From Geotalea daltonii FRC-32 (GTDB lineage: Bacteria > Desulfobacterota > Desulfuromonadia > Geobacterales > Geobacteraceae): a stretch of DNA of 32,000 nucleotides. The notes under the pieces are model-generated. The model made no database searches. It had not been told where the DNA came from and was given only the letters and a program-made list of their open reading frames with translations. The stretch covers positions 390,001 to 422,000 of the forward strand of contig NC_011979.1 of the NCBI RefSeq assembly GCF_000022265.1, in the 5' to 3' direction. Of this stretch, positions 1,359 through 29,008 are shown one piece after another. A program made the translations under genes and the position numbers. Each line of letters opens with the position of its first letter. The first letter of the stretch is position 1.

Positions 1359-2726
1359 CTACTGTTTTTCGACCGTCACCGAATCGAGAACCGCGGTAAT
1401 ACGACGGTTCTGCTGACGTCCTGCCTCGGTTCCATTGTCGGCAATTGGGCGGGTCATGCCGTAGCCCTTGGCGGTGAGGCGGTCGGCGGCAATGCCGTGC
1501 TTTTTAATCAAGTAGCTGCGGACGGCTTCGGCGCGGCGCTGGGAGAGCTTCATGTTGGCGGCAGCTGATCCCACATTGTCGGTGTGCCCTTCGATCACCC
1601 CTTTAACCGTAGGGTATTTCTGCATATAATCGGCAACTTTCTTGATTTCGCCGGCATATTTGGGCTGAATGTCGTTCTTCCCGGTGACGAATTGAATGTT
1701 GATGGACATGCTGAGGGTTTCCAGGTCCGGGCAGCCGTCGGCTTTCACCTTGGTTCCCTTGGGGGTGCCTGGGCATTTGTCCAGGTAATCGGCAACGCCG
1801 TCGCCGTCGGAGTCGACTGGGCAGCCATCCTGGTCAACCTGAACTCCTGCGGGGGTACCGGGACACTTGTCCAGGTAGTCGGCGACGCCGTCCTTGTCGG
1901 AGTCAACAGGGCAGCCGTCCTTATCTACCTGAACGCCGGCCGGGGTGCCCGGGCACTTGTCCAGGTAATCGGCAACGCCGTCCTTGTCGGAATCAACGGG
2001 ACAGCCGTCCTTGTCAACCTTGACGCCTGCAGGAGTGCCAGGGCATTTATCCAGGGTGTCGATAACGCCGTCATTATCGGAATCGGCGGGTGCAGGCGGA
2101 GGAGCGACAACAGGAGCGGGAGCCGGAGCCGGTTCGGGGGCTGGTGCTGGTGCCGGTTCGGCTTTGGCAACGGGAGCCGGTTCCTTGGCTGCGCCAAAGG
2201 AGTAGACGAGGCCGAGATTATATTCATAGTTACTGTAGGAGTCCCCTTCATGCTTGAAAATCAGGTGACGGAAATCGCCCCTCAGTGCCCAAGTATCGGA
2301 GATGAAGTACTTGATGCCGGGGCCGTAGTCGAATACGCCGCGGGTCAGCTTGGTGCCGTCATTGCTGTCAAGGGACATGCCGCTGTAGCCGGCGGCGATA
2401 TAGGGCACCAGCCTGTTGTCGGGGAAAATGTGCAGCAATGCATCGGCGCCGTAGCGATAGAAATCGGTTTTCGTCGAGCTCCTGGTTCCTTCAGTGCGGG
2501 TATAGTCGAAGAGTGCCTCGGCGCCAAGGTGTTTGGTGAAGTTGTAGCCGGCCCGGATGCCTCCCACAGGCTGGGTCTCCAGGTGCTGTTTACCGTCAAA
2601 GGTGTATCCTCCCACGATGGGAGAGAGGTAAAAGGCCCCGGGTTCGACTCCTGCAGCCGAAACCGTGCCCACCGAGAGCAGCAGGGTGCCTGCTGCTGCC
2701 AACAGCATGCGGTTGAATAACTTCAT
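1359..2726 (-). CDS. OmpA family outer-membrane protein: N-terminal beta-barrel, Pro/Ala linker, four thrombospondin type 3-like repeats, C-terminal OmpA peptidoglycan-binding domain
   Basis: ORF 1359..2846(-), trimmed to the internal ATG at 2726 (MKLFNRMLLAAAGTLLLSVGTVSAAG signal peptide) preceded by GGAGGAA. Repeats are DSDKDGVADYLDKCPGTPAGVQVDKDGCP. The C-terminal tail has the OmpA_C-like motif (GHTDNVGSAAANMKLSQRRAEAVRSYL). Confidence 0.9.
   Translation of the reverse strand: MKLFNRMLLAAAGTLLLSVGTVSAAGVEPGAFYLSPIVGGYTFDGKQHLETQPVGGIRAGYNFTKHLGAEALFDYTRTEGTRSSTKTDFYRYGADALLHIFPDNRLVPYIAAGYSGMSLDSNDGTKLTRGVFDYGPGIKYFISDTWALRGDFRHLIFKHEGDSYSNYEYNLGLVYSFGAAKEPAPVAKAEPAPAPAPEPAPAPAPVVAPPPAPADSDNDGVIDTLDKCPGTPAGVKVDKDGCPVDSDKDGVADYLDKCPGTPAGVQVDKDGCPVDSDKDGVADYLDKCPGTPAGVQVDQDGCPVDSDGDGVADYLDKCPGTPKGTKVKADGCPDLETLSMSINIQFVTGKNDIQPKYAGEIKKVADYMQKYPTVKGVIEGHTDNVGSAAANMKLSQRRAEAVRSYLIKKHGIAADRLTAKGYGMTRPIADNGTEAGRQQNRRITAVLDSVTVEKQ
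1728..2084 (-). repeat. four tandem ~93-bp coding repeats (TSP3-like Ca-binding repeats) inside ompA-like gene
   Basis: The peptide unit D-x-D-x-DG-V-x-D-x-LDKCPGTP-x-G-x-x-V-x-x-DGCP occurs four times in a row. The units are also highly similar at the DNA level. Confidence 0.85.
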
Positions 2727-2761
2727 TTTTTTCCTCCTTCTTCTGCATTGAATTTTACTTC

Positions 2762-3205
2762 CTATGTTGCCGTCGGCTCCACAGCAGAGGTGCACTGGGG
2801 GCAACGGGATGCTGCCAGAGGTATTGGGCTCAGGCAGAACGGGCACTGCCGGGTGGACGGTGGGGGAGGTGTTTCCGGCCGGCGGAGTCGATTGATCTGC
2901 TTTACCACGAGGAATACGGAGAATGCAACGAGAACGAAGTCGATGATGTTGTTGAAAAAGAGCCCGTAGTTGATGGTGGGGATGCCGGCGGCCTTTGCCT
3001 TGGCTACCGTGTCCACAGGGGTGCCGGAAAGATTGATGAACAGGTTGCTGAAATCCATTTTCCCGGTAAGCAGCCCGAGGGGGGGCATGAGGATATCATT
3101 GACGAGGCTGGTGACGATCTTGCCGAAGGCCGCACCGATGATGACACCGACGGCCAGATCAACGGCATTTCCCTTGACGGCAAATTCCTTGAACTCCTTG
3201 AACAT
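2762..3205 (-). CDS. mscL: large-conductance mechanosensitive channel MscL with C-terminal CxxC-x10-CxxC extension
   Basis: [44 protein letters not shown]... is the canonical MscL N-terminus and TM1. The product is 147 aa and the tail is [22 protein letters not shown]. Confidence 0.9.
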
Positions 3206-8747: not shown

Positions 8748-8771
8748 GAAGTTCTCGAAAGAGGCTCAGTA

Positions 8772-8938
8772 GGCAGTCGTGGTTTCGGGAGTGAGTGACA
8801 GCGCCGGAGCGGCGAGCGGACACCCGCCATAGGTCATTGGACGAAAATAGCGGATAACGGCGTTTCCGGAGCTGGGAAAGACGTCACTGCCAGGTCCGCA
8901 GCTCCGGCGCAGAACGAACGGACGAAGCCGCGACTGCC
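8772..8938 (+). repeat. structured intergenic repeat, copy C (inverted relative to copies A and B); candidate ncRNA or MITE-like palindromic element
   Basis: It fills the ku-ligD spacer. With the reverse complements of 27261-27433 and 28599-28770 it shares GGCAGTCG, GGGAGTGA, AGCGGCGAGCGGACACCCGCC, AGGTCCGCAGC, CGAACGGACGA and CGACTGCC in the same order. The 16-bp closing stem (8772-8787 with 8923-8938) contains two T-G pairs that are wobble-compatible only on this strand. Confidence 0.85.
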
Positions 8939-8953
8939 GGCCGCACCCCTGTC

Positions 8954-9733: not shown

Positions 9734-9817
9734 AGGTGCCTCCCTGGTGTTATGAACAGCAGCTTGTCTGATAAAACATTACCATTTGCCATGGGCTTTG
9801 CAACGGGGAGGAGCAGG

Positions 9818-11011
9818 ATGGAAACAATGGAAGTCGCCGACCTGGAGCTGATAGAAGTCTGCTATGAAAAGGCGGTTCTTCTGCTCCATGCCAATTCCAG
9901 CGAAGCGGGTATTCTGGCGGCAACCATAACCAGGAAAGCAGCAGGGCGCAACTACACGGCCATCTTCGGACGGGACGCGGCCATCTGCGCCCTCGGCATG
10001 CTGGTCTCCGGAGACGTGGAACTGGTGCGGGTCGCCCGGCAGGGGCTCGCCACCCTGGCACAGTACCAAGCGCCCAACGGGCAGATCCCCAAATATGTGA
10101 AGCCCGAGACCGGGGAGGTGGATTTCTGGTACACCGGCTGTATCGATGCCACCCTGTGGTGGCTGATCGCCGTCAGCTTTTACGACCGCCTCTGCCCGGA
10201 AGAACACCTTGGCGCAGGCCTCGCCGAAAAATCGGCATTGGCCTTGAATTGGCTCCAATGCCAGGAGCACCAGGCCTGGTACCTTCTCCAGCAGAATGAG
10301 GCCAGCGACTGGGCCGACATCATGCCCCGATCCGGGTTTGTCCTTTACAGCAATGTGCTCTGGCACTGGGTGAAAAGGCTCTACAACCTCCCCACCGCCT
10401 GTCACACCAGGGATTATGCTAACCTGCTCTTTAACCCATATGGCAACGTCGTTCCCGAAAAGCGCCGCCCCCGACTCCTTGTCCATTACATCCGCAACCG
10501 GTCCAAAGGTACCCCCTTTTACCTCAGCTTCGTCAATTTCACCGTCTGGGGGATGGAGATCGACGTCTTCGGTAACGTCCTTGCAGCCTTGACCGGGCTG
10601 GCCGCTCCATCGCGGGGATGCGAGCTGGTCAGGGCCATTCTGGCCCTGGAGGCGCACCGCCCCTTTCCGCTCCGGGTGGTGGGGCGGCCGATCCAGATCC
10701 GTGAGCCGCTCTGGCGGCTTTACATGCACCGCCACCGCCAGAACTTCCCGTGGCAGTACCATAATGGCGGCATCTGGCCCTTTGCCGGCGGATTCTGGGT
10801 AATGCTGCTGGCCCGCCTGGGCAAGAGGGAAAAAGCCCTGGTCGAATTGACCCGGTTGGCTCGGGCCAATCAGGTGAACGACTGGGAGTTTAACGAGTGG
10901 TTCCATGGCGTGACCGGAGAGCCCTTGGGCATGGTGGGACAGTCATGGAACGCAGCCATGTTCATCCTGGCCTTCCGCACGGTCATCGACAAAAAGCGCT
11001 ACGTTTACTGA
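9818..11011 (+). CDS. (alpha/alpha)6-barrel glycoside hydrolase, GH100 (alkaline/neutral invertase) / amylo-alpha-1,6-glucosidase-like
   Basis: Motifs AIFGRDAAICALGM, NGQIPKYV, WYTGCIDATLWWLI, NEASDWADIMPRSG, YHNGGIWPFAGGFW and GQSWNAAMFILA. The track ORF starts at 9752, but the ATG at 9818 (METMEV) has GGAGGAG 4-5 nt upstream and leaves room for the divergent ku promoter. Confidence 0.7.
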   Translation: METMEVADLELIEVCYEKAVLLLHANSSEAGILAATITRKAAGRNYTAIFGRDAAICALGMLVSGDVELVRVARQGLATLAQYQAPNGQIPKYVKPETGEVDFWYTGCIDATLWWLIAVSFYDRLCPEEHLGAGLAEKSALALNWLQCQEHQAWYLLQQNEASDWADIMPRSGFVLYSNVLWHWVKRLYNLPTACHTRDYANLLFNPYGNVVPEKRRPRLLVHYIRNRSKGTPFYLSFVNFTVWGMEIDVFGNVLAALTGLAAPSRGCELVRAILALEAHRPFPLRVVGRPIQIREPLWRLYMHRHRQNFPWQYHNGGIWPFAGGFWVMLLARLGKREKALVELTRLARANQVNDWEFNEWFHGVTGEPLGMVGQSWNAAMFILAFRTVIDKKRYVY

Positions 11012-13842: not shown

Positions 13843-14049
13843 GGAGCATGAAAAACGACATCTTAGCTGTTTCCATCCGGAAAGGGTTCTTTTCTGCCTT
13901 GGCGGCGTCAATCTGCGGGCTTGCTTGTGCTGCGTACCGATGTACGCCTCCGCGCAACCCCTTGATTTCCTTGCCAGGACAAAAAATCCCTCATTTCCGG
14001 TCTGGAAACTGCTAGTGTCACATCCGGAGTTTCCGGATGGACACTAGCT

Positions 14050-22344: not shown

Positions 22345-23028
22345 TCAATACTTGACCGGTCCCCAGACGAAGCGGCCGGAATGATCGATGTATCCCTTTT
22401 TCCCGTCGATTTCCACCAGCGCCAGTCCGTCGACGAAGGCATCGGCGTTTTCGAAGGCAGGCTGGATGGCGATTTTTCCGCTCTTGCCCACATAGCCCCA
22501 TTTGCCGTCAGACTTGATCCTCGCCAGCCCTTCGGTAAAATCGTCCACATCCTTGTATTGAGCGGGAACGACCTTCCTTCCGGCTTTGTCGACAAAGCCC
22601 CAGCGGCCATCGATCTTCACTTTTGCCATGCCGTCCCTGAAATTACCCGCATCTTCGAATTCAAGGGGAATTTTTACCTTGCCGCCATGGTCCACAAAGC
22701 CCCACTTCTTTTTGCTCCTCACCTTGGCCAACCCTTCGGAAAACTCGTCGTTGTCGTCATAGACCGGTGAAACGACCACCTTGCCGCTCCTGTCCATGAA
22801 GCCCCACAGGTCATTTACCTGGACCCGGGTCAGCCCCTCGATGAAACCGCCACGCACGTCATCGAACCTTGGAGCGATAACCTCTTTGCCCTGGTGGTTG
22901 ATAAAGCCGATTTTGCCGTCCCGCTTGATTTCGTAAAGGACAGCTCCCTGCTTCTTCTGCTGACCGCCAAAGGCGGGCAGCGCCAGGGAAAGCACGAGAC
23001 AGGCAAGAGAGAAGATCAGTCGTTTCAT
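22345..23028 (-). CDS. WG-repeat (KWG) containing secreted protein
   Basis: Signal peptide MKRLIFSLACLVLSLALPAFG, then about six repeats of the form K/R-WGF-V/I-D-x-x-GK-x-V-I-x-P-x-F/Y-D/E-D. AGGAGG RBS. Confidence 0.8.
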   Translation of the reverse strand: MKRLIFSLACLVLSLALPAFGGQQKKQGAVLYEIKRDGKIGFINHQGKEVIAPRFDDVRGGFIEGLTRVQVNDLWGFMDRSGKVVVSPVYDDNDEFSEGLAKVRSKKKWGFVDHGGKVKIPLEFEDAGNFRDGMAKVKIDGRWGFVDKAGRKVVPAQYKDVDDFTEGLARIKSDGKWGYVGKSGKIAIQPAFENADAFVDGLALVEIDGKKGYIDHSGRFVWGPVKY

Positions 23029-27136: not shown

Positions 27137-27260
27137 GCTGCCTGTCCTCAGCCCTTGCTGACGCTCTGGTCGTGGTGAAATGGCTTGTATCTTCATTGTA
27201 TAACTCTTTGCTTTCATGGCTATGTCCAAAAAAAGGTCATCCGTGAATTACGTGGAATAA

Positions 27261-27462
27261 AAGGCAGTCGCACCATCGTCCGTTCGCTCTGTCGCCACAG
27301 CTGCGGACCTTGCGGGGCCGCCCGCGTTAATGGTGCACGATTCTTGAATTGGTTGGTTGCCTCCGTTCCACATGCGGCGGGTGTCCGCTCGCCGCTGTAG
27401 CTCATCGTTCACTCCCGCCGTCCCGACTGCCTTTCCTTAAAGTGTCTGAAGAACACAAAAAA
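27261..27462 (-). repeat. structured intergenic repeat, copy A; candidate ncRNA or MITE-like palindromic element
   Basis: The core 27261-27433 is bounded by AAGGCAGTCG ... CGACTGCCTT and aligns along its whole length with 28599-28770. The shared 3' flank TGTCTGAAGAACA plus an A-run abuts the CDGSH terminator. The strand is assigned from a G-U pair in the internal helix (GCUACAGC / GCUGUGGC on the minus strand). Confidence 0.85.
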
Positions 27463-27492
27463 GGCCGGACCGGCAATGCGCCCGGTCCGGCC
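27455..27492 (-). terminator. rho-independent terminator of the yceI-CDGSH operon
   Basis: 11-bp stem GGCCGGACCGG / CCGGTCCGGCC (27463-27473 / 27482-27492). On the minus strand it is followed by TTTTTTGTGTT. Confidence 0.85.
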
Positions 27493-27517
27493 TTGTCATG
27501 CCGCATGTTTTACTGCC

Positions 27518-27736
27518 CTACTTGGCGCAGCTCCCGTCGCAGAAGGGGGCGTTAGCGGTCTTGCCGCAGTTGCAGAGATATACCTGCTGCTTCTCCTTGA
27601 CTTCAAAGGAGATGGGGGTGCAGTCGGTCACCTGGTGGGCGCCGTCACAGAAAGGTGTGGCGGCTTTTCCGCAGGTACAGCGGTAGTAGGTTCCCGGTTC
27701 CAGTTCCAGTACGATCGGTCCTTGTGCTTGGGTCAT
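27518..27736 (-). CDS. CDGSH iron-sulfur domain protein (two motifs; the second reads CDGSC)
   Basis: 72 aa. CTCGKAATPFCDGAH and CNCGKTANAPFCDGSC. Confidence 0.85.
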   Translation of the reverse strand: MTQAQGPIVLELEPGTYYRCTCGKAATPFCDGAHQVTDCTPISFEVKEKQQVYLCNCGKTANAPFCDGSCAK

Positions 27737-27757
27737 GGTAAGTTCTCTCCTTGGTGC

Positions 27758-28348
27758 TTATTTATTTTTGATCAGTTCGATTTCGAGAATTATGGCGATT
27801 TCTTCACCAACGGCTACCCCACCGGTTTCAAGGGCGGCATTCCAGACCAGGCCGAAATCCTTGCGGTTGATGGTAGTGGTTGCTGTGGTGCCGCGGCGGA
27901 AGTTACCCCAAGGGTCCTTGCTTTCTTTGGTCAGGGCATCCACATCGAGCACCACTGGACGGGTCACTCCGTGCAGAGTCAGATTGCCGGTAACTTTAAG
28001 CTTTTTCCCTGCTTTCGCCACGCTTTTGGAAACGAAAGTCATGGTCGGGTATTTGGCCACATCGAAGAAATCGGCGCTGCGCAGGTGTTCGTCACGCTTG
28101 GCGGCGTTGGTGTTGATGGATGCGGTGTCGATGGTGACGTCAACCTTGGACTTGGTGATGTCCTTGTCGTTGAGCTCAAGGACGCCAGCTACCTTCTCGA
28201 AGCTCCCCTTGACATTGGAGACCATCAGGTGGCGGACTTTAAATCCCACGTTGGAATGATCGGCGTCGATCTTCCAGCTGGAGGCCGAAGCGATGACCGG
28301 CAGGGACAGGGCGATGATTGCTGCGATGGATGTGACAATGCGTTTCAT
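27758..28348 (-). CDS. yceI: YceI family polyisoprenoid-binding periplasmic protein
   Basis: Signal peptide MKRIVTSIAAIIALSLPVIASA, then WKIDADHSNVGFKVRHLMVSNVKGSF...RDEHLRSADFFDVAKYPTMTF...LTLHGVT, typical of YceI. AAGGAG RBS. Confidence 0.9.
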   Translation of the reverse strand: MKRIVTSIAAIIALSLPVIASASSWKIDADHSNVGFKVRHLMVSNVKGSFEKVAGVLELNDKDITKSKVDVTIDTASINTNAAKRDEHLRSADFFDVAKYPTMTFVSKSVAKAGKKLKVTGNLTLHGVTRPVVLDVDALTKESKDPWGNFRRGTTATTTINRKDFGLVWNAALETGGVAVGEEIAIILEIELIKNK

Positions 28349-28516
28349 GGTTGTTTCTCCTTTTGTTGTGTTGATAATAAATTGTTTAATATTGAACTTA
28401 TTGCCTAAAAAATTTTTCTGCCTGGATCTTATGGGTACTGTCGGTGTGCTCCTCCTTTATATTTTTTCGGGGTGATACGCTCGCAATTGATTTAAAATCA
28501 TATCGTTTGAACTTAA

Positions 28517-28543
28517 ACTATATTTTTCTGAAACAACTGTCAA
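28517..28543 (-). promoter_or_regulatory. sigma70-like promoter candidate for yceI operon
   Basis: The minus strand reads TTGACA (28543-28538), 15 nt, TATAGT (28522-28517) in an AT-rich stretch. The spacer is short, so this is tentative. The inverted repeat CAACTG...CAGTTG overlaps the -35. Confidence 0.3.
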
Positions 28544-28598
28544 CTATTTTTTTCAGTTGGGCAAAAAAATTCTTCCAGACGTTTCCTGGGGACATAAC

Positions 28599-28798
28599 AA
28601 GGCAGTCGTGGCGTCGTCTGTTCGCTCTGTCGCTACTGCTGCGGACCTTGCTGTGTCGCCCGCGTAACGGTGCACGATCCTTCAAGTGACGGATCGCCTC
28701 CGTCCAACATGGGGCGGGCGTCCGCTCGCCGCTGTAGCTCGTCGCTCACTCCCGACGCCACGACTGCCTTCCTCGGAAATGTCTGAAGAACAAAAAAA
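28599..28798 (-). repeat. structured intergenic repeat, copy B; candidate ncRNA or MITE-like palindromic element
   Basis: The core 28599-28770 has a perfect 18-bp closing stem AAGGCAGTCGTGGCGTCG / CGACGCCACGACTGCCTT. It aligns with copy A throughout (by eye roughly four-fifths identical). It has the same flank TGTCTGAAGAACA plus an A-run next to a different terminator hairpin. Confidence 0.85.
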
Positions 28799-28830
28799 TC
28801 GCCAACGGCTATGGATAGGCCGTTGGCGAT
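28790..28830 (-). terminator. rho-independent terminator downstream of the ABC-transporter operon
   Basis: 12-bp stem ATCGCCAACGGC / GCCGTTGGCGAT (28798-28809 / 28819-28830). On the minus strand it is followed by TTTTTTTGTTCTTC. Confidence 0.8.
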
Positions 28831-29008
28831 TACAGCAGCACGGAAACGGGGGATATTTTGTCCTGGCAAGGAATACAGGGGATTGCGCGGAGACGTACGG
28901 ACCCTCTCTCTATCTCTCTCTCATAGGGAGATAGCATTCTTTGCTTCCCCCTTTATGGGGGAAGATAGAAGGGGGGATGGGTACGCCCCGCAAGCAAGGC
29001 CGCAGAGA

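Follow-up and report, generated by a model that had tools for sequence, protein, structure and literature searches.

Intergenic repeats of Geotalea daltonii FRC-32 are very probably copies of a miniature transposon with ISL3-type ends and a conserved folded core

Three similar, strongly folding intergenic sequences in the genome of Geotalea daltonii FRC-32 raise the question of whether they are members of an RNA gene family or copies of a mobile element. They lie in a 32,000-nucleotide stretch of contig NC_011979.1 (positions 390,001 to 422,000 of the forward strand; hereafter the window, to whose first letter the coordinates refer), for which a sequence-only reading had described a structured repeat of about 170-200 nt as a candidate new RNA family, with a MITE/ERIC-type element as the alternative. 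The three copies were found where that reading had placed them, with 27261-27462 (copy A) and 28599-28798 (copy B) in the same orientation at 81-85% identity and 8772-8938 (copy C) matching their reverse complement, and alignment showed the listed sequence blocks and their order to be correct in all three. Patterns taken from the two ends, GGCAGTCG-N6-CGGGAGTGA and CGAACRGACGA-N5-CGACTGCC, matched exactly at the three copies and nowhere else in the window, apart from one further, unrelated match to the first pattern with three mismatches; shuffles predicted 0.17 and 0.02 matches and reached the observed count in 0 of 100. Open reading frames within the element are short and without conservation, and the window contains no transposase by Pfam, as had been noted from the letters.

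The borders of the repeat were given by a contig (L120) from a strain about 98% identical, which was found through the CDGSH protein encoded next to copy A and lacks precisely this copy. The empty site reads ...CCGGTCCGG CCTTTTTTTGG ACATAG and the filled site in the window ...CCGGTCCGG CCTTTTTT [220 bp] CCTTTTTT TGG ACATAG, so that one CCTTTTTT in L120 corresponds to two around the insert and the largest possible duplication is exactly 8 bp. By this alignment, the whole inserted element of copy A (5′ arm, core and 3′ arm) occupies 220 bp of the minus strand at 27237..27456, between target-site duplications at 27229..27236 and 27457..27464, where the same 8-mer (AAAAAAGG on the plus strand, which is CCTTTTTT on the element strand) stands on both sides of the filled site and once in the empty site (GGCCTTTTTTTGGACA). 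Its core (GGCAGTCG...CGACTGCC) is a rod-like hairpin at 27263..27431 on the minus strand, scoring 165.5 bits with the covariance model. Copy A was inserted inside the T-tract of the intrinsic terminator of the CDGSH gene (27518-27736, minus strand), whose hairpin (27461..27494, minus strand) was located by a terminator scan, has a 13-bp stem with 10 G-C pairs followed by a T-run, and is also present in L120.

Copy B was delimited by sequence reading as a 221-bp element at 28570..28790 on the minus strand, with near-perfect terminal inverted repeats TTCTTC(C)AGAC(A/G)TTTCC (TTCTTCAGACATTTCC / GGAAACGTCTGGAAGAA) and arms 0.92 and 0.94 identical to the family consensus. An identical 8-mer, CAAAAAAA, flanks it at 28562..28569 and 28791..28798, and its core at 28601..28768 (minus strand) has a 16-bp closing stem, a minimum free energy (MFE) of -87.1 kcal/mol (z -6.2) and a covariance-model score of 182 bits. 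As a correction to the earlier description, the unit extends past the closing stem, the inserts of A and B measuring 220-221 bp. Copy B also lies in a T-tract, that of a terminator-like hairpin (ATCGCCAACGGC...GCCGTTGGCGAT; 28798..28831, minus strand, by sequence reading) between the ABC-transporter genes and the element, where a permissive Rfam search gave matches to terminator-containing sRNA models on the minus strand. Look-ups for an empty site of copy B with YceI and the ABC ATPase returned the same strain only.

Copy C has its core at 8772..8938 on the plus strand, in the spacer between ku and ligD (both identified by Pfam) and antisense to both genes; it scores 144 bits with the covariance model and belongs to a subfamily with its own P2 sequence. 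The Ku protein of the window shows 100% identity to the one encoded by G. daltonii FRC-32. Its decayed 5′ arm (GAAGTTCTCGAAAGAGGCTCAGTA; 8748..8771, plus strand) abuts the ligD start codon and is 0.58 identical to the arm consensus, compared to 0.54 for random background, while its 3′ arm is a truncated remnant (8939..8953, plus strand) that ends at the ku stop codon and aligns with the longer 3′ flank of the copy in the same spacer of Geotalea sp. SG265.

Other repeats were seen in the window as well. Just beyond the terminator adjoining copy B lies one member of a second repeat family, a 63-nt inverted pair at 28836-28898 and 13942-14004 that is 84% complementary (CGGAAAyGrGGGATwTTTTGTCCTGGCAAGGAA..CArGGGrTTGCGCGGAGrCGTAC). 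Three tandem 90-nt units, 80-83% identical, stand at 1762-2084 inside an OmpA-like gene (1359-2846, minus strand), whose product has Pfam thrombospondin type 3 repeats at residues 340-363 (about 1758-1829) that overlap the first 90-nt unit only, and a 102-nt periodic repeat occupies 22472-22807 in the gene of a WG-repeat protein.

To find further copies, one genome per species was scanned for GGCAGTCG-N6-CGGGAGTGA, giving 118 loci, nearly all of them chance matches; the true family loci came only from Geotalea sp. SG265 and Geotalea toluenoxydans. A profile search of the scanned loci yielded 17 copies beyond those of the window, 20 in total, with at least 15 across 6 scaffolds of SG265, and the copies were clustered, a second one being present in 4 of 13 8-kb blocks and three in the 32-kb window. 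The scan did not return G. daltonii FRC-32 itself despite the three exact matches in the window, this genome apparently being missing from the scanned collection or masked in it, and the absence of matches in other Geotalea species is to be weighed against that. The covariance model found only the window's three copies; applied to another 13 kb of G. daltonii sequence and to 21 kb from G. uraniireducens, it gave no match. In the data searched, the family is restricted to Geotalea. The whole element had no match in a plasmid collection, and the 34 matches to the arm GTTCTTMAGACATTTCCG in metagenomes were all due to chance, with 0 continuing into the core. One copy (L055), considered as a full-length parent, was rejected because it is truncated by a gene. 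The conserved sequence strings of the family occur in no paper of the literature library searched, and the family goes unmentioned in two Geobacter genome papers with catalogues of multicopy sequences.

When the 20 copies were aligned with their flanks, conservation extended outside the closing stem, with GGTTCTTCAGACATTTCCGGGGAA upstream and TTTTATTTCC..GAATTCCCGGATGAACC downstream. The element consists of a 5′ arm (consensus GGTTCTTCAGACATTTCCGGGGAA), a core of about 168 nt and a 3′ arm ending ...GGATGAACC, and its two ends are inverted repeats of each other (family consensus GGTTCTTC... / ...GATGAACC). Duplications of 8 bp flank copy A (CCTTTTTT, empty site checked), copy B (TTTTTTTG) and two further copies, L006 (TTTTTTGA) and L030a (AAAAATAA/G, empty site checked); they are not recognisable in older copies, and several copies have arms at random-background similarity. 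L030a lies in SG265 between the cysteine-desulfurase gene (iscS) and mnmA, flanked by AAAAATAA and AAAAATAG, and the corresponding site in G. daltonii lacks the copy and has a single AAAAATAG. The copy is also absent from two metagenome relatives (L173 and L174), in which, as in G. daltonii, only 4-15 nt are found. A further SG265 copy (L030b) lies in the T-run after the mtaB terminator and is absent from G. daltonii; in L173, the A-run that borders this terminator hairpin on its opposite side holds an independent copy. The element is mobile, and because copy A differs between near-identical strains, its copies are useful as strain markers in G. daltonii, a subsurface metal-reducing bacterium.

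Two side observations concern this neighbourhood. After mtaB in G. daltonii (L171, about 9810-9930), a palindromic repeat, CCCCCCTATTTCATAGGGGGG, occurs twice with AAGCGAACGGAGTGAGCAGG between, and AAGCGAACGGAGTGAGCAGG resembles the two conserved unpaired blocks of the element's core joined together (GCGAACGGA + GAGTGAGC), which may be coincidence. In G. uraniireducens Rf4 (L172 1-296, 8784-9959), an IS4-type DDE_Tnp_1 transposase is located between mnmA and mtaB, with a group II intron reverse transcriptase nearby and no copy of the element.

The ends of the element were compared with a plasmid collection using a 39-nt query that joined the consensus 5′ arm to a few bases of flank and gave weak matches only. 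The two matches inspected closely, from Cupriavidus and Xanthomonas, coincide exactly with the ends of genes annotated as ISL3 transposases, three more Cupriavidus matches lie in or beside ISL3-annotated genes, and the transposases of the matching insertion sequences carry the Pfam domain DDE_Tnp_ISL3. Over their outer 24-30 nt, the arms agree with the terminal inverted repeats that bound annotated insertion sequences of the ISL3 family (GGTTCTTCA....TTCCGGGGAAGGC), with 26 of 32 positions of the Cupriavidus end (TTTTTTTT directly followed by GGTTCTTCACCGATTTCCGGGGAAGGCC; termini also read ...GGCAGCG) identical to the arm (GGTTCTTCAGACATTTCCGGGGAAGGCAGTCG) by manual count. The Xanthomonas terminus is TTTTTTTT directly followed by GGTTCTTCACCCAACTCCGGGGAAGGCAGCG, and the other ends of the insertion sequences, GGTTCTTC / GGTTCATC, agree with the 3′ end of the Geotalea element (reverse complement of GATGAACC). 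On its complementary strand the 5′ arm reads GCC TTC CCC GGA AAT GTC TGA (...AFPGNV*), so the C-terminal frame of the transposase and its stop codon are kept; a manual reading of the Cupriavidus counterpart gave ...GGA AAT CGG TGA. The core showed no similarity to the interior of the plasmid ISL3 elements, the end of about 30 nt alone being in common. No ISL3 transposase with these ends was found in the Geotalea sequences examined; a protein search for ISL3 transposases gave thousands of matches that could not be sorted by organism. As a separate observation, three metagenome contigs (L121, L129 and L130) have a hairpin, GCGAACCC....GGGTTCGC, followed by the 18-mer GTTCTTCAGACATTTCCG of the arm and then by divergent sequence, the 18-mer being either a chance match or a distant ISL3-type end.

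The autonomous ISL3 elements and the Geotalea copies also agree in their insertion sites. All three autonomous elements have 8-bp A/T-rich duplications (TTTTTTTT twice and AAAAGAAA once): T8 stands on both sides of the Cupriavidus and Xanthomonas plasmid elements, and the Pseudomonas aeruginosa element, with AAAAGAAA on both flanks, adjoins a terminator hairpin, two of the three being beside terminator-like hairpins. Among the 20 Geotalea copies, 7-8 lie directly after a unique host terminator hairpin and T-run, and 4-5 abut an A-run and hairpin at the other end, with both orientations relative to the neighbouring genes represented. A heuristic that called the orientation of neighbouring genes by the longest open reading frame was discarded, as it miscalled genes of the window. 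A preference for T/A-tract targets is common to the miniature element and its autonomous relatives, and the duplication of 8 bp of the tract preserves the T-run of the host terminator.

Taken together, these results make it very probable that the repeats are copies of a miniature inverted-repeat element (MITE) of about 220 bp that stems from an ISL3-family DDE transposase, by which it is presumably mobilised in trans. The MITE/ERIC-type alternative of the sequence-only reading was hence the correct one, given the ISL3-matching arms, the 8-bp duplications and the strain polymorphism of copy A. The arms represent ISL3 inverted-repeat ends, and the 5′ one retains the last transposase codons and the stop codon. 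Insertion generates an 8-bp target duplication and takes place, in either orientation, within stretches of T or A, for the most part T-tracts of Rho-independent terminators, and it leaves the host terminator intact. Mobilisation would be due to an ISL3 transposase resident in Geotalea, and the expected parent would be an ISL3 element of about 1.3 kb ending in GGTTCTTCAGACATTTCCGGGGAAGGCAG, with a transposase ending ...AFPGNV*. In this account, autonomous and miniature members of an ISL3 lineage furnish an explicit case of targeting to T-tracts beside intrinsic terminators, which are safe sites because the 8-bp duplication rebuilds the tract. Several findings count against it: the searches met no ISL3 transposase with these ends in Geotalea sequences, similarity to the plasmid ISL3 elements is confined to the end of about 30 nt, several copies combine background-level arms with no recognisable duplication, and the promoter scan gave nothing within the element. 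In addition, the arms diverge more than the core, unlike simple neutral MITE decay, and an extra assumption of selection on the core is needed.

The fold of the core was evaluated in the 20 copies. Each core (minus strand in A and B, plus strand in C) is a rod closed by GGCAGUCG/CGACUGCC. The closing stem, P1, has 16 bp in copies B and C, which reach MFEs of -87 and -84 kcal/mol (z -6.2 and -5.6), while its inner half is degraded in copy A (3 of 8 pairs broken; z -2.1); the rod proposed earlier is largely right. P1 and P2 are real, and the description of helices that change sequence was borne out by covariation across the 20 copies. The proposed P3 (GCGGAC/GUCCGC) is invariant in sequence as described, though RNAalifold favours GCG/CGC together with a GCGG/CCGC hairpin instead, and P4 (CCCGC/GCGGG) is weak. 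In the consensus structure, 96.9% of cells are paired, compared to 27-59% in slid-partner controls. Eight pairs and 24 cells are changed on both sides; examples are three P2 pairs, columns 13/163 (G-C/A-U/U-A) and columns 25/151 (C-G to U-A). These values are reached by 0-1 of 500 shuffles, a significance that is overstated because the copies are mutually related.

The two strands of the core are not equivalent. Mismatches comprise 57 G·U cells in 18 columns versus 7 A·C cells in 5 (binomial p = 0.01 by columns), 19 of the 20 copies show better folding on the element strand than on the complement, and the composition-controlled energy z is -3.4 for the element strand versus -2.1 for the complement. 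The unpaired blocks are conserved, as the first description held, and are almost all purine, since the element strand is strongly purine-rich (roughly G61 A38 C48 T21); they form symmetric loops, GGA/GGA and GA/GA. Because copies occur in both genomic orientations, the asymmetry is not attributable to a mutational strand bias. In agreement with the earlier statement that no RNA family fits, Rfam 15 gave no match at the gathering threshold over the whole window and none on copies A and B at E<=10 over 27200-28900, where the permissive search found only terminator-like matches beside the elements. A CsrA-sponge RNA was considered and rejected, the number of GGA motifs being as predicted by base composition, as were 6S, SRP and other known rod RNAs, which had no Rfam match.

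Conservation also differs between core and arms. Identity to the consensus is 0.92 in the core versus 0.73 in the arms, with a random background of 0.55 (Wilcoxon p = 1e-4), and mean pairwise identity is 0.84-0.88 and 0.36-0.43, respectively, the apparent core conservation being somewhat inflated because copies were ascertained through the core pattern and core profile. Cores remain at 0.86-0.98 identity even in copies whose arms are at background. The stronger conservation of the core, the covariation, the G·U excess and the purine-rich loops argue for selection on one single strand, probably RNA.

The main competing explanation is an ordinary neutral MITE, in which long inverted repeats and common descent would account for the hairpin and its apparent covariation, and the core conservation would come from ascertainment. 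The discovery of copies through the core and their relatedness, which weakens the shuffle controls, both fit this explanation, and recurrent insertion in one spacer has been shown, so that the G. daltonii and SG265 ku-ligD copies need not be orthologous and are no proof of conservation in place. Ascertainment, however, acted on 17 bases only, whereas the other conserved core positions, about 90, stay at 0.86-0.98 where the arms are at background. Neutrality also predicts equal G·U and A·C mismatches, as opposed to the 18 and 5 columns observed, and in every copy the two arms differ in their conserved unpaired blocks. We therefore regard a wholly neutral element as rather unlikely.

The ku-ligD spacer bears on the same point. 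In SG265 this spacer holds, in the orientation of copy C, another member of its subfamily; two other relatives have none. This SG265 copy was located by synteny, not by its core. The core halves of the two copies are nevertheless 53/57 and about 45/51 identical, compared to 67% at ku third codon positions, which also speaks against neutrality; the apex is unalignable. Differences within the stems keep the pairing, either by compensation, with A-U replaced by U-A in P1, or as G·U, with G-C replaced by U·G in P2. If both copies are orthologous, this pattern shows purifying selection in place, on the strand antisense to ku and ligD. On the gene phylogeny, a gain followed by a loss and two independent gains are equally parsimonious and, with recurrent insertion in one spacer documented, orthology is uncertain. 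In the relatives without the element (L161 2290-2400, L163 2290-2500), the spacer was seen to hold a different palindromic repeat (CCCCTCTCCCCTCGTGGGAGAGGGCTAGGG.GAGGGG), and the ligD-proximal part of that spacer sequence also stands beside the SG265 core, at the place expected for the 5′ arm.

Selection on the core would act on it as a folded single strand, most likely RNA transcribed from neighbouring genes. Such an RNA could serve as a stable hairpin, for example as a signal for processing, stability or termination in the manner of ERIC/REP sequences; alternatively, the hairpin might have a role in transposition itself. Tentatively, the core of about 168 nt may represent a functional RNA module, carried by an ISL3-derived transposon and retained by selection once the ends have decayed. 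Its possible roles include a processing or stability signal, a protein-binding rod with GGA/GGA and GA/GA loops, and a small regulatory RNA. RNA made by read-through alone fits poorly with the occurrence of copies in both orientations relative to neighbouring genes and with the antisense position of copy C to ku and ligD. If selection on the core is real, the family would offer a clean system for a mobile element that spreads a structured RNA signal through a genome, and if the core is indeed an RNA module, the transposon would sow ready-made structured RNA at gene 3′ ends and inside operons across Geotalea genomes.

Free-standing non-coding RNA genes, each a rod of about 170-200 nt with its own promoter and terminator and spread by duplication rather than transposition, are improbable. 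The covarying helices, conserved purine-rich internal loops, strand-biased G·U pairs, better folding of one strand and lack of an Rfam match would all suit such genes, as would the U-rich stretch after the closing stem in most copies. However, that stretch pairs with the 5′ arm and is not a free terminator tail, a promoter scan found no sigma-70-like site in or before any element of the window, and copies stand in both orientations relative to neighbouring genes. RNA genes are further opposed by precise presence and absence between strains and species with 8-bp duplications, and by ends that match ISL3 termini. Because of the ISL3-end match, the duplications and the copy A polymorphism, this is not a conventional RNA gene family; what survives of the original proposal is a conserved, structured single-strand core, and the match to a known insertion-sequence end overturns the rest. 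A false lead is thereby removed, the apparent new RNA gene family being a transposon-derived repeat.

A single-stranded-DNA hairpin moved by an HUH/Y1 transposase (REPIN/RAYT or IS200/IS605-type), or an integron attC-like site, is highly improbable, for although the strand-specific wobble bias and conserved unpaired bases resemble folded single-strand substrates and the copies are clustered, such systems lack target duplications like those of copies A, B, L006 and L030a, and the termini agree with ISL3 ends, which are of the DDE type. The copies are scattered in both orientations, not arrayed as cassettes, and have the wrong core sites for attC, and Pfam detected no HUH transposase or integrase in the window.

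The MITE family supported here can be placed among known systems, beginning with the ISL3 insertion sequences that were read (Cupriavidus pinatubonensis plasmid p2, NZ_CP080769; Xanthomonas sacchari plasmid, NZ_CP010410; Pseudomonas aeruginosa, RJAF01000006). It shares with them 8-bp duplications, insertion in T/A tracts and the make-up of the ends, with GGTTC(T/A)TC... as terminal inverted repeats, TTCCGGGGAAGGC(A)G as an inner repeat and, within the right end, the stop codon that closes the transposase frame; unlike them, it has no transposase gene, measures 220 bp compared to about 1.3 kb, and has an unrelated core. ERIC/IRU of enterobacteria, Correia of Neisseria, and RUP and BOX of pneumococci are MITEs of other bacteria that adopt long, imperfect hairpin folds and act at the RNA level. 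Like the Geotalea element, they are short, non-autonomous, intergenic and imperfect palindromes over their whole length, are co-transcribed with their neighbours, as the Geotalea element probably is, and have an interior more constrained than expected for junk DNA. The Geotalea element differs from them in its parent family and ends, its pronounced preference for terminator T-tracts, its conserved purine-rich symmetric loops, covariation and G·U strand bias, and its occurrence in one genus. REPIN/RAYT and IS200/IS605 derivatives resemble it as extragenic hairpin repeats, often near terminators, with strand-specific folds, but they have neither target duplications nor DDE-type termini, both of which it shows, as 8-bp repeats and as ISL3 ends. 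Class C bacterial group II introns insert after intrinsic terminators and so share its site directly after a hairpin and T-run; remnants of such introns were rejected as a source for the repeats, which have no Rfam group II match, no intron domains and no reverse transcriptase and, unlike these introns, carry a target duplication on a unit of 220 bp.
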